A stretch of 61,154 nt of DNA, filler included, from Ionaspis alba (lineage: Eukaryota), in the NCBI GenBank assembly GCA_964255285.1. It is 3 parts of 3 records of this genome, joined end to end, with 100 filler letters (N's around TTAATTAATTAA, not from the genome) between each part and the next. Parts side by side here need not be neighbours in the genome. Positions count along the whole stretch, not along the records: positions 1 to 20,325 come from CAXUUL010000247.1; 2 more parts are not named here. One strand, written 5' to 3'. A model generated the notes under the pieces. The model saw only the letters and a program-made list of their open reading frames with translations, was not told the DNA's origin and did no database searches. The translations under genes and the position numbers were made by a program. This document shows, piece by piece, positions 4,640 to 42,996 of the stretch (positions within the stretch are counted from its first letter, which is position 1; each line of letters opens with the position of its first letter).

Positions 4640-5350
4640 ACCTTGAAGCTTTCGAGCTATCTCAGGATTGGTGAACCAGGCCTTTTAGAAACAGATGATG
4701 CTCGCTCACGCTGGACCTAAAACGAGGGCTTGAGGTATAAGTCTGGCACCCTAAGCGAGAGTCGCCATTTATCGATATCGTGAAATGCAGTTACGTGTCT
4801 GTACAGGTCAACCAATTTTACAAGGTCAAGTCCGCTCATATACAATGGAGAGACCTCAGGAGTTAGGTGCCTATGCTTGGCTGCCAGATAAGTTCGTGCT
4901 TCTGATACGCAGCTTACCCGAAAACCACGCGAACCTAGAGCAGCATCACCGAGCTCGGGGCAGATTTTACTGATCTTGGCGATGTGGTCGATCTCGACGC
5001 GGGACAAGGGCTCGATGACCTAGAGGCCCTCTTAGCTTGGTGCATCTATCTTCCGAGATCATACAGGCAGGGGGGCTTACCTTGACCAGGTTCTTCCTCC
5101 AGTTATCAGCCATATGCGGACAAAACTTACCGTACCTGCTAGCCACAGGAACAAGAATCCGAGCAGNNNNNNNNNNNNNNNNNNNNNNNNNNNNNNNNNN
5201 NNNNNNNNNNNNNNNNNNNNNNNNNNNNNNNNNNNNNNNNNNNNNNNNNNNNNNNNNNNNNNNNNNATATGCGGACAAAACTTACCGTACCTGCTAGCCA
5301 CAGGAACAAGAATCCGAGCAGGTTCTGGTCGAGCCAGATACGTGTGTTAC
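4640..5350 (-). pseudogene. Possible degenerate multi-exon gene remnant
   Basis: Several GTAAGC/GTAAGT donors and CTAG acceptors on the minus strand flank short coding-like pieces (VIEPLSRVEIDHIAKI, AWFTNPEIARKLQGR). No complete model could be built, and the region spans a gap. Confidence 0.2.
5112..5321. other. Assembly gap flanked by an exact 55-bp duplication (unmerged contig overlap)
   Basis: 5112-5166 is identical to 5267-5321 on either side of a 100-N gap. Confidence 0.9.
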
Positions 5351-5359
5351 CATCCTGAC

Positions 5360-6154
5360 CTACGGGACAATGCCCAGATACTTACACGGCGCATACAACC
5401 ACCGAGCAAAGTGCCACAGCAGCGCTCTCAAAAGCTGTGGCGGCGCACTCGGCTCGAACTTGATGTCCTTCCTTGTTGCCACGACCGCAACGCCCATCCA
5501 CGCATACGATCTTGACTGTGCAATTTCAATCATTCCCGCCGCTAGATCAAGATAACTCACGAATGGCGAGCCTTCCGCCATCTCATCCACACTCAACTTA
5601 TACCCCTTCTGCACATCCTCTGTCAACGCCGACGGCTGCACAAAAGTCACATCCAACCACGATTTATGTAGTCGCAGATTCTCTTCTGCAAGCCCAAGGT
5701 CCGCATATACGTGCGACATGCCATGAGCGGCAATCCACCTGCCCACCGCTGGCAATTTGGCCGACATGATTGGGTTCAATGACCCAGAACTCAGGAAGAT
5801 CAGCTTTGGTGGTTTGTAACTGGTTTCCTTGTCTCTGATATGGCAAAGGGCTGCTATAACCGAGTTTGCGCTATCTTGGGCAATGCGGATGCCAGGGATG
5901 TTCTCGTTGCTGCCGAGGACGCAAAATGCGGCGTCGACGTCTGGCACGAGGGCGGATGCTAGGAGGCGAATGTCCGAAAGGGAACCCTCGAAGACTTTCA
6001 CGTTCGGTTTATTCTTCAGGGCAGGTCTCTGCGTTAAGAGCTTGGCTTTGGAGCGGACATAGGCGTTGATCTTTGTGTTTGGAGCTTGGACGAGGAGGTC
6101 CACTAGGGCACCGCCGGTTTTGCCTGTGGCACCTAGGATTGCGTACGTGGGCAT
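5360..6154 (-). CDS. NAD(P)-binding oxidoreductase, AflX/OrdB (MdpK/AvfA-related) family
   Basis: MPTYAILGATGKTG Rossmann start, AYVRSKAKL, KVFEGSLSD, PKLIFLSS, YADLGLAEENLR and VSYLDLAAGMIEIA all follow the AflX/OrdB pattern. ATG at 6152-6154. Confidence 0.8.
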   Translation of the reverse strand: MPTYAILGATGKTGGALVDLLVQAPNTKINAYVRSKAKLLTQRPALKNKPNVKVFEGSLSDIRLLASALVPDVDAAFCVLGSNENIPGIRIAQDSANSVIAALCHIRDKETSYKPPKLIFLSSGSLNPIMSAKLPAVGRWIAAHGMSHVYADLGLAEENLRLHKSWLDVTFVQPSALTEDVQKGYKLSVDEMAEGSPFVSYLDLAAGMIEIAQSRSYAWMGVAVVATRKDIKFEPSAPPQLLRALLWHFARWLYAPCKYLGIVP

Positions 6155-6845
6155 TGTGCTAGATGTAGATGATGTATCACTAGAAGAGTCCAATGTTTTG
6201 CTCTACAACAAAAAACTCAAGTCAACGCTGAAAAGCTTCGCATTATCACAGCTCCGTCAGTCCGAGGATTTAGGTACCTGACTCCTCTCCTAATCCTCCA
6301 ATCTTTGTCAATATGCTTCTCTGTCCCTGCTTACTTACCTTGCCTGCGATGGCAAGAAGTATTCAACAGTGATACGGAAACTCAATGTCATTTTTCATCA
6401 CCATGAGTCTGGCTGGTTCCGGCAAGCGGAGCGGCCCATGTTGGTCTTCAGCCACGGCTATGCCGTGCTTGGTTAGCCTCGGTCTTAATAGTGAGCAGTT
6501 TGTGAGCAGGTAGAAATGTGTTGGATTTATATGTAAAGATAGCTTCGATTTTTATTGGCGCTGTCTATGTGGTCTAGAGGTTCCTACATACATACAGTAT
6601 CTTTTACAGCGTCCTTTGCCTGCGAATGGCGGACGAAGACCAGCCAACTTCGACGTTTCCTTGTTTTGACTACGATCCTATCAGCACTGAGCTTCCTCTT
6701 CTAAGTCATGCCATGATTGTATGTTTGTGATAGTACAAGTAGAGAAGGTATACGAGCTCCATCCAACAGTCGTTGTTGCTCGCGGCGCCGTGCTGATATA
6801 GGACAAGCACTGCGTATGCTCAATCCTTCCTGCTGCGTCATCCCT

Positions 6846-9800
6846 TTACATCTGTTTCTTCGAAGGATCTCCTTCGCGGCCCAGAAAGCCAATGGACTTG
6901 ACACCAAAGGTAAACCCATCTTCCAATCTCCCCAAGATGCCGCCCTGGATAAGTGCGTCGAAATGCTCCATTGCCAGATGTTGTGCCTGCTCGAGCTTAT
7001 CCACGCTCTCGTAGAGGTAACCAAGTTTCGAAATTGCTTCCCGAGTACGTATATGGGAGGTGCTATGACGTTCGATATGTCGATGCACGATATCCTTGAG
7101 GAGTTCCTCGGACTCGTCCACTCTTTTCAACCAGAACCAAGCCTGTGCCAGGCTCTGTTGGCCAGACAGGAGAATGAAGTCTGACTTGTCGTTGGTGACT
7201 GCACGTCTAATGTTGATGATTGCCCAAGAAAGTTTTTCTTGCTTTACAAAATTGAGCTGTTCGCGTGATATCTGGGCGAGGTTGTATAAGATTGTGGTCA
7301 CCCACGTGCTCTGAGGGCCGTTGATCTGTCGATGACCCTCGAGCGAGGTTTCCAAGTGGTCTTGTGCTTCTGCCAGCAGATCCCTGTGCCAGCTTTCTTC
7401 TCGATGAGCCCGATTCGCCCATGCTTTGTATATCAACGATTCTGCCAAAGTCGTCCTCAGATTCATCTAAAACTCGTTCTTTGAATTCTCGACATCGCTC
7501 CTCTTCGTGGCATCTGCCAAGAGCATTCGGAGGATGGGTATCGCCTCCTCATACTGACCGTTCCGAGCTAAAGCATGTGCCAACTCATACATTGGTTCTA
7601 CGACGCCCTCATCGTCAATTCCAAACATTTTCCGTCTGCGCTCCACGATCGACCTGAGCAACGGTATTGCTACCGAATATCTGAATATGCGCGAGAATGC
7701 GAGTGCTATCCTGAACATGCGAGCTAAGATATCTAGCTCGTCATGTGGACAATTCTGCTGCACTTTTTCTAACTCTGCCTGTTCGTTCTCAATTTCTTCC
7801 TCTGCGGCTTCCACTATTGTTTTGTAAGTCATTGGGTCGCTTGCTTGGCTATCCCAGTAATCATCGTATTTTTCTTCCTCGCGTGTGATCAGTTTGAGAG
7901 CCACCGGATCTATAACCTGCTCCACGTCTTTCGTCAGTCTTTTATGCTCAAAAGCACGAATATAGTTACCAATCCTCATGTTGTGCAGGGTTAGTTCTAT
8001 GTGTATTCTCCTACGTATATGAGGTCTATTCGACCCTCCAGTCTCATCTTGTAAGAGGTCATGAAGCTCACGAATGACCTGCTGCAGGCGAGAAGTTGAC
8101 TTCACAGCAGACGGACTGAGGTCGATTTGAGTAATGTCGACGAGCCGTGTCCTTATGTGATCCGTAATGATGTCTTCCTGGAGAGCATATTCCTTATAGA
8201 ATGCATATATATTGGCAGAGGCGTTCAAAGGTGGAATAGGCATATTGATGCCTTTGAGTTCATAGTAAGACGCTATTCGGGCTTGTCTCAAGCTTTCTGC
8301 TTCTTGAGAGAGTCTTTGGTCGTGCTTGGTCATGGTCTTCAACATAACATTGACCTCTTTAATCCGGATGTCGAATAACTCGCGCACCCCTGGACGAGTT
8401 CTTTTGTACAACGGCGACAGTGGATGACTGCTCAAGTGATGCCATGCTTGGATATACATGTCGTCGGGGTAATATGTTAAGGCACAGGATTGAACGGCCG
8501 GCGGTATAGTAGCAATAAGGCTGGCTTCTAGGAGATGGCATACTTTCCAGTCTTTAGCATGTTTTCCCTCCTGAGTGGTTTCGTCGTAGTCTGCAGTTTC
8601 AGGACGGAAGAGGGTGGCTTTGATAGACTTGATCGTCTCTAATGCGATTTCGAGAAATCCGTTGTACGTGTGCAAGACTAGAGATGTCCTTCTAGTGTTT
8701 GAAAAGACGCTGGGAAAGAGCTGCCAGTAATTCACATACCGATCCAGGCAGAGTAGGAAATCGGATCTTCGGTAAGCAGAGGCCATAGTCAGGTAATTGG
8801 TGAAATCGGAGTCAGCGAAACGAGACACCTGTTCCTTATACGGACGGCTAGTTGAGTTCCTTCCTGCCTGTTCCATCATGACATAATAACGGTCATAGTA
8901 GAGGCTTGCCATTGCAAGGTCTAAACTCGCTGTAAACCGCGGTTGGCAGATATGCTTGTTGGCAAGAAAACTTCGTGTAACGAGAGTCAAAATAGGGTTT
9001 ACTTCGAGATAATGATGATCCGATTCATCTATGGTAACGAAGGCGGCCAAATCATGTTGTAAAAGGCACTTCATCTGGCAGCAAGAAGGGAGAAGATATT
9101 TCTGGCAGTCTTGTGCGCAAAGGCGAAAACGACAACCCTCAGGCTGCTCAGAGATCCAATGCTGAAGTAAGTCGGAAAAAGGCGAAGTTCGGTCGAAAAG
9201 CTGCCAGATAATTTCACAAAACACATTCAAATCATTGTCACAGAGTAATTCGCGTGCTCGTTCGAAGCACACAAACATCTCAAGGTAAGTGTTGTGGTCG
9301 GCCAATAGACGACCCCAGAACGCCGTGATAGAAATGCTTAATCGAAAACGAAAGCCGCTTTCCGGAGAACCGAATGCTGTCTCAGAGCTCCAGTAGTCTA
9401 GTTTGACATCCAGTGAGTTGGAAAGAGGAGTGTTTTGCCTGAGCTTGGAACTGGGCGTTTGCTCTACGACTTGCGTCTTCAGCCCAGAAGAACGCACTGG
9501 CACTGGTGTATCATTTGTAGAGCTTTTGAAATTCCCTTGATCTTGTACATGTGAGTCCACCATTGGGTTTTGAGGCTCGAAGATTCTGATCAACTGTCTT
9601 ATCGAGCGATATGCTTCTCCGTTATACACCAACTCGTGCTCAATATGAATAGGCTTGTAGTCGAGAAGGGCATCAAGGTAATCGCGTATTGAGGCAAGTG
9701 GATTCAGAGAGAAATGACGAGTAAGGTCGGTAATTATGATCTTGATAGCCAGAGGGTTTCCGCACATCATCGATATCAATTGCTCAAAATCCTGGGAGTT

Positions 9801-11738
9801 GGACTTCATTTCGTTCTCAACGCGCTTGGCATGATTTGAAGTGTGTAGCAGTTGAAGGGCGATACTGAGAGCGTTGCTGTGCTGTATGGGCTTCAACACA
9901 AAAGTGGCCTGCTTGATTCCGTCAAGCCACGAGACCTCAGATCGAGAAGCCCAGATAGCTGGACATTGGCGTAATCTGGCTAAGAACCTGCGGATCTGTG
10001 TTCTCTGTACTCCACTGTCCTCTTCAGTTGACCATTGAATTGATTCAAGGTTGTCCAGGATAAGAAGCGTGGGGCTGGAGTTCAAATCCTGTGCAATTGA
10101 GCTTGTTCTTGAAAGATCTGGCGGGAAACCGGCAGAGAGACAAAGCTCAGTCAAGAAACTGGTAAAGGTCAATGGCGAGAGACGTGGATCATCCAATGTC
10201 AAGTAAATGACCCGACTGCAGAAGCCCGTCGCCGGCCACCACGCTGCAAGATGCTTGAGCAGAGCAGTCTTGCCAATTCCAGGGCTTCCCTTTAGCAGGA
10301 TCTTCAGTGGCATTGGAGGCGCCAACCAGTTCTCAAGCCTAAGGATGTCGTCTTCCCGCCCTTGCAAAACAAAATCCGGTGGAATGTTAGCCAGGATCGA
10401 TGGCCGCTGCGGTGAAATGTCGAGATCTGATTCTGAAAAATGAGATATAGTGCTCTCGCTGCAGTGAATGATTGGAATAATGTAGTCTTCGAGCCGAAGC
10501 TGGGTGCCATAGTTTGTACTTCGAAGTGGAGAGTTGCAGAGAGCCGAACGCGCCTGAGACGCGGCTCCAACTGCTGAAGCACTATGGCCAAGTAGACTTT
10601 CGTAGAAGGAGCTCATAAAAAGCTCCGCAGTATGCGATAGCACATTATACGACATGCCAACAGCATTTCTGACTCCAGCTTCAATAAGCATACGAGCCAC
10701 GTTGGAAGCGCTATGAGCACCAGCAGCTGAGCGGCAAGCATTGATTACAACAGTATCGATACCGTAGCCAGCTATGAGGTTCGCAAGTCGTCTGGCACTT
10801 ATCTTCTCTGCTCGAACATTATTCCTGGAACTATCGAGCTCTATAAACACGAGCTGAGCTCTATAATTATTTTTTAGCAAGATCACATAGGAGGTCTGGC
10901 TTGGTCCTTACCCATTTTCATCAGCTTCACCATGCATATCAAGGTGGAGGACATCAAAAAAGCCGCTAGGATGCTCTCCAAGAATACGAACCAAAGCTTC
11001 AAGTGTTCCTGGCCGAACGATTTGAAGACGAGCTGTCCTGTCCGTCGATTCATCCACTGTCTTGATTGCTGAAGCAATAGAGCGAGTTATCAGGCGATGA
11101 GGAATATCTCTTATGGACGGCCGCGCAGTCACTGCTACCACATTTCGACCATGGTCTCTCTTTTCAAAGGCTGACATCTTGTGGTCCGTGGCCCTCCGCT
11201 GAATCGTCCTCAGACTAGCGTGCACCCGGACGACGTGAATGCTTCTTGGCTCAAAGGAGTATGTCGTGACGACTTCGCTCCATAGCGTTTGGTTCTCCAG
11301 TATCTCCCAAGTTAGTCGCCCCAACCACGATGTTGTATCGCCTCCGTCCCCATCATGGGCATCATGAATTTCAATGAGGAGATGATCTTGTTGCGAGTAT
11401 GGGTGGTAGATACTCGACAGAAAGACCTCGGTGATCAGTCCTTCTCCAAATTCGTGCAGTCCGCGTTGAATGGCATCAGCCCGTGAGCTTGCAAAAGGAT
11501 CTCGAACAGGATAATGTTCGAAATACCATCGTAGAGCCGCATGTCTTTCGTCGCTCCCGCTTTCCACCGTCTTTGGGGACAGCACACATATTCTGCTGCC
11601 TCGGTCGGAAACAATGAGGACTTTTCGACCTCGACTAGTATTGCCTGCATGATCTCCATCCTGTAGGCGACTTTGACGAAGCCTGTCCTCTAGCAAGTCT
11701 GCATCGCTTGGTGGTCGAATCTGTAATCTGAAAAGCAT
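6846..11738 (-). CDS. NLR-like protein: N-terminal CHAT (caspase-like) protease + NB-ARC/STAND ATPase + TPR repeats; in-frame stop at 7467-7469
   Basis: Exon 1 is 11738-10912, followed by a 51-nt intron at 10911-10861 (GTAAG..GCTAA..TAG) and exon 2 from 10860. CHAT dyad motifs VLHLDMHG and VVINACRS, Walker A GSPGIGKT, Walker B LLILDNLE and GNPLA are present. TPR-like helices (ELAHALARNGQYEEAIPIL; KLGYLYESVDKLEQA) continue in the same frame after the TAG to 6846. Confidence 0.85.
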
Positions 11739-12343
11739 GAGGGGAAGACCTCATCTCAAGAGGCAATATTTGGATCTGGCTACATGGTGTCCCAAATGGA
11801 CAAACCAAAGGGGCCTCAAGAGAGAGGGCACCTGTTGGACCATTTGCTTAAGGTATCCATTGCATAGTATCAGCACACTTCCTCTGATTGGTTAAAGGAA
11901 AGAGTGGTTGGAGGATGCCGCCCCCACACGGGTGGTAATTTGAACGATACGCCACGTTAAGGGAAACGCCGCTAAAATAGCTTGACTCAAGCCGGTACGG
12001 GACTTTGAGCTTTAGTGACCGATCCGCAATTTTCCACTAATGTACGTAGTGGTCTATACCGTAATATAAGGTATTTACATCATGTACGTACTCTAGACGG
12101 AGCAACTAAGATACAGAAAACTTCCATTTCCTACAGTCAATTCGTGATCGATTTGTACTTTTTTGAATGCTCTAGCTCATATTGCAATTCATATTAACCC
12201 GCCCCGGCCCGAATCTGTCGTTCATGTTACATTGTTTGTGTAAAGAGTTAGAGAGATCATAGAAGACAAAAATCTCATACAGTGCAGAAGTACGGCTTCT
12301 ACTGCCAGTCACCACTTGTCAACTGTCTACCAGGTTGTAAGCC
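11739..12343. promoter_or_regulatory. Putative bidirectional promoter between the CHAT-NLR and gasdermin genes
   Basis: 605-bp spacer between divergent ATGs. Contains a reverse CCAAT (TGATTGG, ~11885) and two TGTACGTA copies (~12041, ~12083). Confidence 0.5.
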
Positions 12344-13222
12344 ATGGGTCGAGATAGAGCTTTCTGGCTTTTGGATCCACTACAGACCATATCTACAACA
12401 AAAGATCCCACCGCATGGCTTGGGCGTATTGTGCTTGATTACCGAACTCCACTCGCAGCATACACTCCGAGGGGCAACTTCACCAACTCGGTTTCGGAGT
12501 TGAACCAGTCTGTATTCCTCAACTTCTCCAATGTCATCAACCATATCACATCCGACTCCTTTAAAGTATCACTTCTCAACTTGTTCGGCGTCTCCTACGA
12601 GGACTACAAATCCCAGGCACATTCGTTCCAAATAGCTCGGGCCCAGAGTTTGAGGATCGTCCAAGACAGAGACGTTCTTACGAAGGTGCTCGAACAGGTG
12701 GAGGTTAGGGCTGATTTGGAACAGTGGCGTTTCAGCACGTTCCGGCCCGTCTATTTCATTGTTGGTGTGCTTGTAGCCAAAGATATCCGATACAGCACAA
12801 AAAGTGCAAACAAGCAAGGCGTTGGTGGTGATATTGACCCTGTTTCAATAGCGGGTCTTGCGGCAGGAGTCCCAATGCCTCTATCAGCTTCCGTTGGTGA
12901 GCACCACATGCAAAGCCGTAATGACAGCGTGGAGTCTGTTGCGCGAGGGAATCGAGTGTTCGCAATTGAGTACCGAGTATTGAAAAAGCGACTCTTCTCC
13001 GGTCGCCCGCATATCGAGGCACACGGTCCAAAGGGGGATCGAGCTTTTGGTCTCGGCGAGAGTGATGATCAATCAGGCCAAGAAGGCGAAGTGGTGGCCC
13101 AAGAACAAATAGAGCTTGACCCCGAGTCCTTCGTCGAAGCTGTAGAGGAGGAGGAGGAAGACGAGGAGGAGAAAAAAAGGTGCTTCATTCTTGATCTTGA
13201 TGCGGAAGACTCTAGTACCTAA
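12344..13222 (+). CDS. Fungal gasdermin-like pore-forming protein (RCD-1/HET-Q1 family)
   Basis: Intronless 292-aa ORF with LGRIV...P near the N-terminus and alternating beta-strand segments. Also has PVYFIVGVLVAK, a Gly-rich hairpin (GVGGDIDP..GVPMPLSASVG), VFAIEYRVL and a ~57-aa acidic tail. Size and its position next to a protease gene fit the family. Confidence 0.8.
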   Translation: MGRDRAFWLLDPLQTISTTKDPTAWLGRIVLDYRTPLAAYTPRGNFTNSVSELNQSVFLNFSNVINHITSDSFKVSLLNLFGVSYEDYKSQAHSFQIARAQSLRIVQDRDVLTKVLEQVEVRADLEQWRFSTFRPVYFIVGVLVAKDIRYSTKSANKQGVGGDIDPVSIAGLAAGVPMPLSASVGEHHMQSRNDSVESVARGNRVFAIEYRVLKKRLFSGRPHIEAHGPKGDRAFGLGESDDQSGQEGEVVAQEQIELDPESFVEAVEEEEEDEEEKKRCFILDLDAEDSST

Positions 13223-14017
13223 TTAGGGCCACCGACGAAACGAAGATCTCTTGTGGACACCTTACATAAATAAAGAATTCTAGATCGGCTTGCGACAACA
13301 ATGTCTATATACTAGTAACATTTTGCTGGTTCTTGAAAACACACGAAACCTCTAAATTACCTTATTTAGACAGAGTTCATATAAGGTAGGTACCTGAGAC
13401 AGCATTCAGGGTTCCGAGGTCATGTATGGTACGGTATGTCAGTGGCTGATGGACAGTCTTTCACTAGTGCAATACGGGTGCCCCGTCGTTCCGTAGGTAC
13501 CTTAGACGTGCCCAAGCCTGACTAGAGGATTTGTCTACCGAAATGGTACAGGGATCCGTGCGGCGGGACTCGCACAACACGGGTTCCCAGATCAAGTACA
13601 TTACACTACTAATTGCGGAATTATGGAACAAGTGCATTATAAGATACATTACCTCGCAGATTGCTGCATCCGTTCATATACGCATAATCATACAAGAATA
13701 CTCCAACAAAGACACAATAGAGGTTCTATCACTGCTGTCAGGCTGTGCGGGCACTTCAAGGCTAATCTTCCACATCCCTGCTCGATCTTTGGGGGCCTTC
13801 TCCAGCTCCAGTGCCGGAAGTAGACGCAGATACGGCGGTGCAGCACTTGACAACCCCTGGCAAAAGGATTGTTTCAGAGTGCAGGTGAAGGAATGGAAAC
13901 AGTTCCTTTTCCAGCATCTATATACATCCTTTCCCAAGTCTTGCTCTGCTCTCTCGTTACTTGTTTATTCGTGCAATCATACTTGTCGCATCCAAGAACA
14001 TATCGAGCAAACTCACC

Positions 14018-16385
14018 ATGAAAGTATTACTTGCCTTGCTTTTGCTTCTTCCCTTCTCGTTAGCAGTGGCTCCAAAAGTTGTTGGGCTTACTATCAAACG
14101 CGACTTGGATATCCATAGACAGTCTCGATTACTGGAACGTAGTGTTCTGCAATCTAACGTGGCCAACGCCGTTCAACTCAACTTCTACTATGTCGACGTC
14201 ACTATTGGAACACCACCCCAACCTCTCGCCATGGTCATTGATACTGGAAGCAGCACGACTTGGGCGCCAAGTTCGAACTCGGGATCTGCGTGTGGCGCCA
14301 ACGGCCAGCTGTGCCCTATTGGTACCTGTGAGTAAACATTTCTTGCGAAGCCACTATGCAAGACAATATGCATACTTGTTATATCACGGGTCCAGGCCGC
14401 TAGCCTGACGAACTATGGATTGGAAGGCCGACAAGGTCTTTGACCTTGTTCCACATTCTTGACACAGACAGATCGTTTTGCTTGTCCAGTTTCCTTCTTC
14501 CCTATACCCTAAACAGCGGGCGGAGACCAGTTGCCTTTCGTCTCTCTTTTCTTGTGACAAACAAGCCAAGGGAGAAGCTGGTCCACGAGGCAAAATGGAC
14601 TTGTGCCCAAAATGTCACTAAATGTTTTGTTTGTGGTTTGGACAGAGTCTCTATATGGTTGTTGTTGCACTGTAGATTGCTAATTTTCTCGCTTCATGCA
14701 TTGAAATAATCGATTTAATATCTATTTAGTCAATGAGTTGGCCTCCACCTCATATCAGCCGGAAACACCTGATTTCTCCGCGAAGTACGCCGAAGCCTTG
14801 GAAGTGCGGGGAAATTACTTTACAGACAGTCTGTCCGTCGCAGGGCTCTCTGTGAATCCATTGGTCATAGGTCTGGGCACGAAAGCAGTAACTCCGCCAG
14901 GCACATATTTCAACGGTATCATGGGCCTTGGTCCAGATAATTTGCAAGCAAACATCTCGGTTCATTGTGAAGCGCAGGCCTTGGATGCTTGCAAAGGGCA
15001 GCCTAGTTCGTGTTGGTAGAACGCCTTTAATCCGTGTATTCGCCCTGGAATCCTCGATCAATTGGTCAGACAGAAGTCTATCAATTCTAGAGCATACAGT
15101 CTTTGGTTGAATAATCTTCGTAAGTGGTCCCATTCTCTCGCATTGGTCTCTCCATCTAGCACACGACAGAACGCCCAGCAATCCGGTCGAACCCTGTGGC
15201 TGCTTCCCAGTTCGTTTTCCTCTAGATAAACTAATCGTATAGCCTTGATGACACATAGAATCTATGGAAGGGACAATATTATTCGGAGGCATCGATACCG
15301 CGAAATTCGCTCCTCCACTCTTGTCAGTCCCTTTACAGCCAGATGATGTTACAGGACTTTTCAGGACCATGACAATCGCTTTGGTCGGTATATCAGCTGG
15401 CCTTATTGGCTCACCACCCACCCAACAGTTCCCGATCGTGGACGCAATTCCTGTAATTTTGGATAGTGGCACGGCGAGATTAGTGTGTCATTCGAGCGTC
15501 TACTAAGAATGCTACTGACATGAGCCCAGATTCTTCCAGAGTATTTGGCATCAGATATTCGAAGCTATGTCGGGGCTTCAATACAACCCGGCTTTGCACT
15601 CCCATTTATTCCATGTTATCAAGCAACAGCAGCCTACAGCCTCACATTCTACCTCGGTGGTCCGGACGGCCCAACAATCGAAGTCCCTATGAGCGAGCTG
15701 GTGATCCCTCGCTATCTCCCTGATGGCACACAGCCACGGTTTGCCAACGGAGCGATAGCTTGCGAATTTGGCGTGGTGGGAACGACCCTAGGTACTTATT
15801 ATCTCGGCGACACCTTCCTTCGCTCAGCCTATGTGGTAAGACCAATCCTTTCCCTGCACCCTTTACCTCCTCCTCCTCCCTCGGTTAAGGATCTATGGAA
15901 AACTTCGCTAATGCTTCCTCTTCCCTTCTTAGGTCTATGACCTCGACAACCTTCAGATCTCCCTTGCCCAAACTATCTGGAACCAGCCGCTCTCCAATAT
16001 CGTGGAAATCAACCCCGACGCACATGGCGTCCCAAACGCAAAGAGTCTTGCCACGGCAGCCACGGCACGGGCGAGTTATACGGGGATTCCAAGCTACCAG
16101 GGAGCTGCCATCATTGCCACGAGCTATAGTTTGTCGGCGCCTGCTGCAGGGAGCATTAGGGCTACGGCAACGGACTATTCGGCCTCAGTGTCGCCTCCAG
16201 CCCCTACGTTTTCAGCAGTGGCGCCGACGTCGACGTCGACATCAGGCTTGCCGTCAGAAACAAGAAAGCCTGCTGTATCTAACGGCGGGGTGTCCGGGCG
16301 AGGACTTGCAAGGCTCGTGGGAGCCAATATATTACTTGGCGCTCTGTCGTTGATTACAATAATAGGGCAATTGGTAGTAATATAA
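14018..16385 (+). CDS. Secreted, probably GPI-anchored aspartic protease (A1, yapsin/OpsB-like), 6 exons
   Basis: Signal peptide MKVLLALLLLL. Catalytic DTGSS and DSGT, plus INSRAYSLWLN, ILFGGID and LGDTFLRSAYVVYDLDN. Ser/Thr-rich stalk and hydrophobic tail. Exons 14018-14327, 14730-14959, 15020-15119, 15259-15482, 15530-15835, 15933-16385. Confidence 0.9.
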
Positions 16386-20325: not shown

Positions 20326-20425
20326 NNNNNNNNNNNNNNNNNNNNNNNNNNNNNNNNNNNNNNNNNNNNTTAATTAATTAANNNNNNNNNNNNNNNNNNN
20401 NNNNNNNNNNNNNNNNNNNNNNNNN
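20326..20425. other. Scaffolding gap with artificial TTAATTAATTAA linker
   Basis: A 12-mer with stops in all six frames sits in the middle of the Ns. The same structure occurs at 40741-40840. Confidence 0.9.
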
Positions 20426-40740: not shown

Positions 40741-40840
40741 NNNNNNNNNNNNNNNNNNNNNNNNNNNNNNNNNNNNNNNNNNNNTTAATTAATTAANNNN
40801 NNNNNNNNNNNNNNNNNNNNNNNNNNNNNNNNNNNNNNNN
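40741..40840. other. Scaffolding gap with artificial TTAATTAATTAA linker
   Basis: Same linker as at 20326-20425. Confidence 0.9.
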
Positions 40841-41912: not shown

Positions 41913-42996
41913 AGAGGTGATTGTTCTTGGAGTTCTGTGTTGGGATGGCAAGGTCAGATGAACAGCTCTACCAAGGTTCAGGTAACAAGATGATGGTGGT
42001 ACTGACTCAGATGATCTTGTAGATGATTGAAAGAGTTCTCGTGATTGAATCTGAAGTCGGATTCTATGCGAGTGTGGAATGAAAAGGATGATCAAAGGAA
42101 AGAATCAAGGTGACGGGAAGCTGTTGAGATAGGGAACTCGCGACCCAAGAAAAGCATGTGAAGAACCAAAAAAGTCCAACCGCCTGGGATCCCTGTTTTT
42201 CCCTCTACTCGTAATGATGCACCAGCAGATTGTGAAGATTTCCTACCTGCTACCGGCGCACAGAAGCGCTCTTACGAGATAGCGGCCGGACCACCAAATC
42301 ACAACAAGGCTTTCACGAGCTCGTTGCCCTGGGTCTGGAGATTGCAATTCACCTGCTTTCTTGTTGGGGGATGGAGGGGTGATTGCTGACATGTGAAGGT
42401 GACGAAGATTGCAGGGATGAAGATTCGATAGCGACCAACGGCCCCATGCGGCTCGTGCAAATGACAGGGGCAGGTGGCACGACCACCAAAATCTTCGCCA
42501 CATCTTGACCATGGGTGTCAACGTGGCCGAGGCGTTTTTGCGACGCCAGATAAACGCCGACGTTACAATTTTCTCCATGATCTGGAGAGGAACAACCTGC
42601 ATCACGTTGTGTCAGGTCAGTGACCTTGAATTGCTCGATTTACAGAGGCGTTGTGTCACCAGCGATCAGTGAGTTCGTGCAATAAAGCTGCCATGATTTC
42701 TGTCTCCACCCTGGCGCGACCACAGCCACAAAGGGCTTAGAGTTGCGCCACCAGACGAGGAAGTGCTTCCGTGCGCATCCTAAACGGTGTTTANNNNNNN
42801 NNNNNNNNNNNNNNNNNNNNNNNNNNNNNNNNNNNNNNNNNNNNNNNNNNNNNNNNNNNNNNNNNNNNNNNNNNNNNNNNNNNNNNNNNNNNNGCAATGC
42901 AATCTCTTTTCAGTCGGTCCCATCAGAAGTAGGAATATATCGGAACTTTAGTTTCCATCTTCAATTTCCGGAGCAGGAAATGACAAGTAATGTTTG

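Follow-up and report, generated by a model that had tools for sequence, protein, structure and literature searches.

Two questions are raised by a pair of divergent genes in Ionaspis alba (GenBank assembly GCA_964255285.1): do they form a regulated-cell-death module, and is that module still intact in this genome? The pair lies in the window, by which we mean the whole analyzed stretch of 61,154 nucleotides, and consists of a 292-amino-acid gasdermin-like open reading frame (ORF) at 12344-13222 on the plus strand and, head to head with it, a large gene at 11738-7467 on the minus strand. The start codons at 12344 (+) and 11738 (-) are separated by the 605 bp of the intergenic region 11739-12343, as the original prediction had claimed, and this gap is presumed to be a candidate common promoter region for both genes. 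Our results make it probable that the pair belongs to the published het-Q1/het-Q2-like class of two-gene modules for regulated cell death and that its receptor is damaged in this genome.

The smaller gene needs no intron in its model (292 codons at 12344-13219, followed by a stop at 13220-13222), and its product contains LGRIV, PVYFIVGVLVAK, VFAIEYRVL, and an acidic tail, all at the predicted places. A word-based search with this protein retrieved 4 relatives among 2416 candidates, and a profile of these 4, run against 1.84 billion representatives, gave 688 matches at E <= 1e-3, with 235 of these at or below 1e-10 and 37 at or below 1e-30; the length was 250-330 residues in almost every case. 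We aligned the window gasdermin with 64 near-full-length profile matches (alignment A2, 65 sequences) and compared the resulting profile with the PDB. Fungal gasdermins made up five of the six sequences found at E <= 10, namely, RCD-1-1 (8jyz_A, 1.5e-7), an MBP-RCD-1-1 fusion (6.8e-6), a chain of the HET-Q1 pore (9uv9_A, 1.5e-4), RCD-1-2 (8jyz_B, 4.2e-3), and a shorter RCD-1-2 construct (0.38); the sole unrelated row had an E value of 0.57. The AlphaFold2 (AF2) model of the protein, with a predicted local distance difference test (pLDDT) score of 81 and a predicted template modeling score of 0.71, contains the two long beta-hairpins of the pore form. When this model was searched with Foldseek, gasdermins filled ranks 1 to 10, nine of these entries being pores and one a slinky-like oligomer, with the RCD-1 pore first at 3.9e-10. 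In the ESM Atlas, the protein lies next to clusters from Ascomycota (0.97) and to a bacterial gasdermin cluster carrying PF26164 (0.94). By profile and by predicted fold, the protein is thus identified as a fungal gasdermin, and the fold that had been proposed for 12344-13222 is borne out by the RCD-1 and HET-Q1 matches. By analogy with its relatives, residues 1 to about 235 presumably form the pore-forming domain, and pore formation and killing are predicted.

The large gene extends over three consecutive minus-strand stop-to-stop ORFs in the same frame (10908-11750, 7467-10907, and 6846-7466), and both intervening stops need to be accounted for. The first, an in-frame TAA at 10908-10910, sits in a 51-nucleotide intron at 10861-10911 (-), predicted from its GT..AG borders (GTAAGG...TTATAG), and would be removed by splicing; because the intron is 51 nucleotides long, the reading frame is preserved across it. 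Exon 1 (10912-11738, -) encodes the N-terminal half of a CHAT domain and ends in HLDMHG, with His269 at codon 10932-10934, as placed by alignment with two CHAT proteins over their CHAT regions, a fungal one (P0171, which NCBI lists as a hypothetical protein of Dactylonectria) and a bacterial one of CHAT-NACHT-TPR composition (P0172). Exon 2 (7470-10860, -) encodes the C-terminal CHAT half with Cys318, a NACHT domain (~9852-10301), a long helical region, and a first TPR_12 unit (~7515-7724). Exon 1 by itself has no Pfam match; it aligns to the N-terminal CHAT halves of P0171 (E = 7e-15) and P0172 (E = 5e-15), both of which end in an identical HLDMHG, and the spliced product aligns with both proteins from HLDMHG through the N-A-C motif.

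The catalytic and P-loop residues of the large protein are intact. On exon 2, Pfam reports CHAT (PF12770, clan CD) at 3.2e-11, with 43.6 bits against a cut-off of 24, over profile positions 172-272 of 289. The catalytic dyad consists of His269 in HLDMHG and Cys318 in VVINACRS (codon 10734-10736, TGC), and the NTPase motifs follow, with Walker A (GSPGIGKT) starting at residue 467, Walker B (LLILDNLE) at 541, and GNPLA at 643; these motifs, the TPR repeats, and the position of the cysteine codon agree with what had been claimed for the protein. Among 16 aligned receptor relatives (alignment A3), the CHAT columns C41 (equivalent to Cys318), N39, and S43 are conserved in at least 90% of the sequences. 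In the NTPase, G190, G193, G195, K196, and D268 are present in 16/16, as is P368 of the GxPL motif, in which G366 and L369 are conserved in at least 90%.

The class of the NTPase was the point on which the domain assignment had to be revised. The original prediction had labeled it NB-ARC; Pfam instead finds NACHT (PF05729, 1.8e-8, 34.9 bits against a cut-off of 26.7) and gives no match to NB-ARC (PF00931) in the large protein at E <= 0.1, so that the CHAT and TPR assignments stand and the NB-ARC label is without Pfam support. Across the 17 homologs found, PF12770 occurs in 16, PF05729 in 13, and PF00931, beside PF05729, in 4. The NTPase part of the AF2 model has a pLDDT of ~80-90, and Foldseek matches it to NLRP, Apaf-1, plant NLR, and general AAA+ structures at similar E values (~1e-7 to 1e-6), which do not separate the subclasses; a single-sequence PDB search found NLRP4F only, at 0.031. 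The central domain is closest to NACHT among STAND NTPases. From its sequence, the large protein is an NLR-like receptor whose single chain unites a CHAT protease with a STAND NTPase and TPR repeats, and its proteolytic activity is predicted.

The second stop is of another kind. A TAG at 7467-7469 (-) occupies a position that is Trp in 4/4 orthologs, no intron signals surround it, and the flanking residues are colinear with those of the orthologs. Because it is a true in-frame stop without an intron, the encoded protein has 1406 amino acids. The orthologs (P0006, P0176, P0177, and P0178; 80-85% identical) read KNEFW at this site and continue for ~206 more residues through the TPR arm. Downstream of the TAG, the cut-off 3' part (6846-7466, -) still contains 206 TPR codons in the same open frame, followed by the ancestral stop, and the ancestral form of the receptor, reconstructed from these sequences, would be 1613 amino acids long. 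Of the size range of ~1400-1600 amino acids that had been given for this protein, the lower end therefore holds for the encoded product, and the 1613-residue form would require read-through. The change, read as TGG to TAG, is specific to this lineage among the five sequences compared. Neither the intronic nature of the TAA nor the premature nature of the TAG was part of the original prediction.

Sequencing reads bear on the TAG itself. A contig derived from run X1 spans 6000-8331 at a depth of ~137 with 0 differences from the window; since X1 is probably the source sample, this agreement excludes a consensus error at the TAG and nothing further. Run X2 yielded short low-depth pieces, one of which (7456-7650) spans the stop site with one difference near an end and is uninformative on the TAG. 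Contigs derived from X1 also differ from the window inside the receptor gene at 9268 (C>G, Cys807 to Ser) and at 11693 (G>A, silent, Leu16), differences that are either assembly errors or strain variation.

What the stop removes is the stretch of the sensor arm that matches TPR models best. Upstream of it, TPR_12 is matched at 4.9e-5 with 23.9 bits, under the cut-off of 30.1; the cut-off part gives TPR_12 at 2e-10 with 41.1 bits and TPR_10 at 2.3e-5. Most of the receptor's recognizable TPRs lie behind the premature stop in this genome. A profile of full-length relatives matches kinesin-light-chain-type TPRs at 1e-27. Tandem Repeats Finder found no tandem DNA repeats in the receptor gene or its sensor arm; therefore, the receptor has no highly conserved repeat cassettes.

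The nonsense codon deprives the TPR arm of its final 206 residues. The module, although its gasdermin is intact, is therefore probably impaired or altered here, and the loss most likely weakens or abolishes sensing. A stronger version of this view is that the locus belongs to the known class and is now a disabled relic, its receptor inactivated by the nonsense codon and the module decaying. The position of the TAG, where all four orthologs have Trp, its support by read-derived contigs, and the removal of the stretch with the strongest TPR matches all fit such decay. Yet the cut-off part is still open and is 83.0% identical to P0177 over 206 amino acids, slightly more than the 79.5% of the preceding 1094, and both observations make the nonsense change recent. 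The frames and catalytic residues of both genes are otherwise intact, and the 1406-residue product is left with its protease and NTPase and with the larger part of the helical region. We regard a relic as possible, though short of probable. It overlaps with the explanation that we prefer, because it concerns the state of the system here and not its kind.

The same truncation could have the opposite outcome, a sensor-truncated allele that has become functional anew as an auto-active or retuned receptor and causes het-like incompatibility with full-length strains. Precedents exist: het-Q2 has been proposed to originate by loss of regulatory parts from a HET-Q2-like protein (PMC8851545; here and below, statements on this paper concern its available parts), and the CHAT protein hetB is a het determinant in Aspergillus fumigatus (PMC11138114). 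That the TAG is specific to one lineage among five compared sequences also speaks for such an allele. However, an auto-active protease beside its own intact gasdermin should be lethal, and an auto-active outcome is less likely because an intact gasdermin adjoins the receptor; moreover, the truncation costs just 206 of 1613 residues, and a lone nonsense change is more simply explained as a defect. We consider a new functional allele very unlikely. A broader form of the idea takes the clipping of the sensor by TGG to TAG as a natural intermediate toward deregulated alleles, comparable to the origin of het-Q2, with TAG/Trp incompatibility or a differently tuned pair as its result and a fungal origin of the pairing, discussed below, as its milder point; it strikes us as quite unlikely.

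If the two genes form a module, they should stay together in related fungi. Orthologs of the gasdermin and of the receptor share contigs of the same length in four other assemblies: 4,622,655 bases (gasdermin P0001 and receptor P0177), 561,362 bases (P0173 and P0178), 299,824 bases (P0175 and P0176), and 66,846 bases (P0002, 55% identical, and P0179, from the cluster of P0007, 50% identical). The window's own proteins, P0174 and P0005, are recorded on a contig of 20,325 bases, the size of the first scaffold piece of the window up to its second gap, and stand outside this count. The co-occurrence that had been anticipated for relatives is therefore found, down to 55% and 50% identity, as shared contigs, adjacency itself not being seen; the 66.8-kb contig establishes closeness of P0002 and P0179, not adjacency. 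On the 299,824-base contig, the recorded ORF of P0176 begins inside the NTPase domain and has 1099 amino acids, versus 1281-1298 for the other three; this may reflect an upstream break in the assembly or merely a different start choice by the gene caller. The gasdermin ORFs P0173 and P0175 likewise begin 9 residues later.

How the receptor might act on the gasdermin is suggested by the end of the smaller protein. The final strand of the pore domain is immediately followed by a conserved motif, G-P-K-G-D-R-A-F-G (residues 228-236; 13025-13051, +), which we propose as the cleavage region; in alignment A2, P229 is found in 40/65 sequences, G231 in 45/65, R233 in 35/65, F235 in 48/65, and G236 in 38/65. 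It is followed by the acidic C-terminal tail (residues 237-292, ~57 residues; 13052-13219, +), defined by D/E-rich columns and proposed as an inhibitory piece of ~6 kDa. The tail is the low-confidence part of the model (pLDDT < 50 at residues 242-274), and Tandem Repeats Finder reports a GAG run within it at 13145-13171. In HET-Q1, a C-terminal fragment of ~5 kDa is removed after F238, in the stretch G234-G241, and the substitution F238A stops both cleavage and killing (PMC8851545). From position, and not from a direct alignment of the two proteins, we infer that F235 of the window gasdermin is equivalent to F238 of HET-Q1. Clan-CD proteases prefer basic residues. The candidate site of the CHAT cut may lie either after F235 or after R233, and by analogy the short acidic tail presumably holds the gasdermin inactive.

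A relative with a different tail occurs in metagenomic sequence. In a scan with alignment A1, one of eight loci was a true relative, a 4.2-kb contig from a soil-type metagenome (L001) whose gasdermin relative at 154-1119 is 35% identical and has a long Ser/Pro-rich tail replacing the acidic one. The next ORF on this contig (1181-1576) encodes a SNARE-like coiled coil.

The mechanism that we propose follows published relatives at each step. A cue bound by the helical/TPR sensor arm would cause the NTPase to oligomerize, and these oligomers would bring CHAT domains together for activation by proximity. The activated CHAT would then cut the neighboring gasdermin in the GP-x-G-D-R-x-F-G stretch, around R233/F235. 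Release of the tail would allow the gasdermin to oligomerize into membrane pores, resulting in cell death. Cue-dependent oligomerization, CHAT activation, gasdermin cleavage, and pore formation are all expected here by analogy with those relatives.

Several results weigh against this interpretation. First, a Pfam scan of the 292-residue protein returned no family at E <= 0.1, including the gasdermin models PF04598 and PF26164, and a single-sequence PDB search with it returned no match; the missing Pfam match points to a gap of the library for fungal gasdermins, a Pfam match not being a defining trait. Second, the linkage is read from equal contig sizes and not from visible adjacency, three of the four cases (0.3-4.6 Mb) amounting to a shared contig only, and no matching gasdermin and receptor contigs were seen among more distant homologs. 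Third, the 3.3 kb downstream of the gasdermin relative on contig L001 contain no protease gene, and only 153 bp of sequence are available upstream of this relative. Fourth, the premature stop may mean that the module is non-working in this organism. Fifth, RCD-1, the best structural match, works via two allelic variants and not through a neighboring protease, according to the available text on that system. Finally, no gasdermins were found beside the bacterial counterparts of the receptor, which we describe next.

These counterparts keep the order CHAT-NACHT-TPR. A scan with a bacterial alignment (A4) gave 320 CHAT-NACHT-TPR loci, mostly in Chloroflexota, Cyanobacteria, Chlorobia, and Desulfobacterales metagenome-assembled genomes, with two in Methanothrix-type archaea; all neighborhood results refer to the best 80 of the 320 (L009-L088). 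The fungal gasdermin profile matched 0 of 1296 ORFs at these loci at E <= 10. Flanking ORFs of 170-420 amino acids within 2 kb were also examined; the 196 candidates comprised 144 after exclusion of nested ones, and PADLOC named 0/144 as gasdermin. Removal of the 29 ORFs to which PADLOC gave a name left 115 for Pfam, which found 0/115 gasdermins, the presence of PF26164 in the Pfam copy used being unconfirmed. The proteins at these loci are 25-29% identical to the fungal receptor and come mostly from filamentous or multicellular lineages. Some flanks carry other defense-type genes (mad2/mad3, HEC-01B, ShosA, SoFic, and CARF), and the neighbors vary. Since no gasdermin was detected beside the closest bacterial relatives of the receptor at these 80 loci, the receptor family can work independently of gasdermin in bacteria, and for the same reason the pairing may have arisen by assembly within fungi rather than by inheritance of an operon.

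The RCD-1 matches and the results at the 80 bacterial loci would both be accommodated if the two genes were adjacent and uncoupled, with the gasdermin activated by another protease or, as for RCD-1, without cleavage, and the CHAT-NLR acting on another substrate. We find this unlikely. The genes are divergent and 605 bp apart, and the partners remain together on same-length contigs down to 55% and 50% identity. More generally, 353 of 1884 fungal gasdermins lie within 10 kb of a CHAT gene, gasdermin clades track protease type, and one CHAT pair has been found to process its gasdermin (PMC8851545). The window family has also kept its C-terminal tail, and its conserved motif lies where HET-Q1 is cleaved. 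The distance of 605 bp lies well within the 10 kb that the published criterion allows between a gasdermin and a protease (S8 or CHAT) gene.

We therefore return to a coupled module, and to the question of whether it is new. The original prediction had rated its novelty as high; this does not hold. Clave et al. 2022 had already catalogued gasdermin-clustered CHAT proteins with a C-terminal P-loop NTPase (Dataset S2, e.g., CVL11809.1 of Fusarium proliferatum), and their Fig. 6 draws a CHAT-bearing NLR-like protein that activates a gasdermin (PMC8851545). Among the first 11 listed "P-loop" rows of Dataset S2, 5 are of the CHAT type, all from Fusarium, and 6 of the S8 type (PMC8851545). A "contracted pyroptosis" model for such pairs has been published in that paper and in reviews of 2023 (PMC10197012) and 2025; the former, by Daskalov, mentions "dozens of NLRs carrying CHAT" (PMC10197012), and both reviews, in their available parts, describe the regulation of these receptors as yet to be uncovered. 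The module is thus a further example of a described class, its pairing is already known in fungi, and it constitutes no new kind of system. Overall, the earlier interpretation is upheld in the identity of the gasdermin, in the CHAT-STAND-TPR composition of the receptor, and in the shared contigs of four assemblies, but not in its claim of high novelty or in the NB-ARC label.

The claim that this architecture has no experimental characterization holds in part. Our full-text literature search, with subscription journals outside its coverage, found no experiments on any fungal CHAT-NTPase-repeat receptor together with the gasdermin that it accompanies, and a 2026 paper on "primitive pyroptosis" covers, in its available parts, HET-Q1/HET-Q2 and bacterial pairs and not the fungal CHAT-NLR. 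The claim holds for the NLR-type architecture in the literature searched, but a TPR-CHAT partner, Q2L-6, has been tested: its isolated CHAT domain processes the gasdermin Q1-6 and gives a barrage (PMC8851545).

Comparison with these systems shows what is shared and what differs. The CHAT and P-loop-NTPase proteins of Clave et al. resemble the window receptor in having an N-terminal CHAT, a P-loop NTPase, a long C-terminal region, and a gene adjoining a gasdermin. The Fusarium row inspected has N-x-C-x-S, GMS, G-R-x-x-I-L-R-L-E, and G-x-G-K-T-A-L-L stretches in common with it, as compared by eye only. The inspected rows give no TPR for the C-terminal part, and the window copy is truncated by a nonsense codon. 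In Podospora anserina, Q1-6/Q2L-6 likewise combines a gasdermin with an adjacent CHAT protease carrying TPR repeats (PMC8851545), but Q2L-6 has N-terminal TPRs, a C-terminal CHAT, and no NTPase in the available description, and the order in the window receptor is CHAT, NTPase, TPR. HET-Q1 is, like the window gasdermin, a short fungal gasdermin, and the window family has F235 in a G-rich motif followed by the acidic tail. Its partner HET-Q2, a subtilisin-like protease of the S8 type, lacks sensor domains, in contrast to the CHAT receptor described here, and the het-Q genes are idiomorphs of one locus, whereas the window pair are neighbors in one genome. RCD-1-1 and RCD-1-2 of Neurospora crassa (8JYZ, 8JYY, and 8JYX), the best profile and structural matches of the window gasdermin, are only 14-16% identical to it when structurally aligned; RCD-1 kills upon encounter of two allelic variants, as given in the available part of the 2025 review, whereas the window gasdermin adjoins a candidate protease.

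Systems beyond these fungal pairs are more distant. Johnson and colleagues (Johnson et al. 2022) reportedly described bacterial operons in which gasdermins are accompanied by caspase-like (CHAT) proteases, some of which have NTPase and repeat domains. In contrast, the nearest bacterial relatives of the window receptor (P0172-like) have no gasdermin neighbor at the best 80 of 320 loci. In the mammalian pathway of NLR, caspase-1, and gasdermin D, three separate proteins are joined by CARD/PYD adaptors, whereas in the window the receptor chain itself includes the protease, and the gasdermin has a short tail. The hetB product of A. fumigatus, a 1,327-amino-acid protein, is a large fungal CHAT protein like that of the window and acts in incompatibility cell death, but it is without a demonstrated gasdermin link and is likened to the window protein by description only (PMC11138114).

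Eukaryotes have no simpler counterpart of the inflammasome-caspase-gasdermin pathway than the fungal clusters of gasdermin and protease genes, and versions of the NLR type, in which one chain unites protease, switch, and sensor, figure solely as predictions in the literature searched. The locus is a possible test case for restraint of the protease by the sensor arm and for the position of the CHAT cut in the gasdermin, because it is compact and well defined and combines one intron, a clear dyad, a conserved motif as candidate cleavage site, and 80-90% identical orthologs from which it is set apart by a natural nonsense change in the sensor arm.

The genes around the pair are of other kinds. 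It is directly flanked by a secreted-type aspartyl protease gene, whose first exon lies at 13889-14332 (+) (Pfam Asp, 5e-9), and by a gene for an NmrA-like NAD(P)-binding protein at 5363-6202 (-) (6.6e-18), both without evident tie to the cell-death module. Runs of N (100 or 44 bases) occur in the window at 5167-5266, 20326-20369, 20382-20425, 40741-40784, 40797-40840, and 42794-42893, consistent with a scaffold with gaps. The wider surroundings encode eukaryotic housekeeping proteins, namely, glycogen phosphorylase, Spo7, Hikeshi, Avl9, an INCENP-type protein, and an acyl-CoA dehydrogenase.

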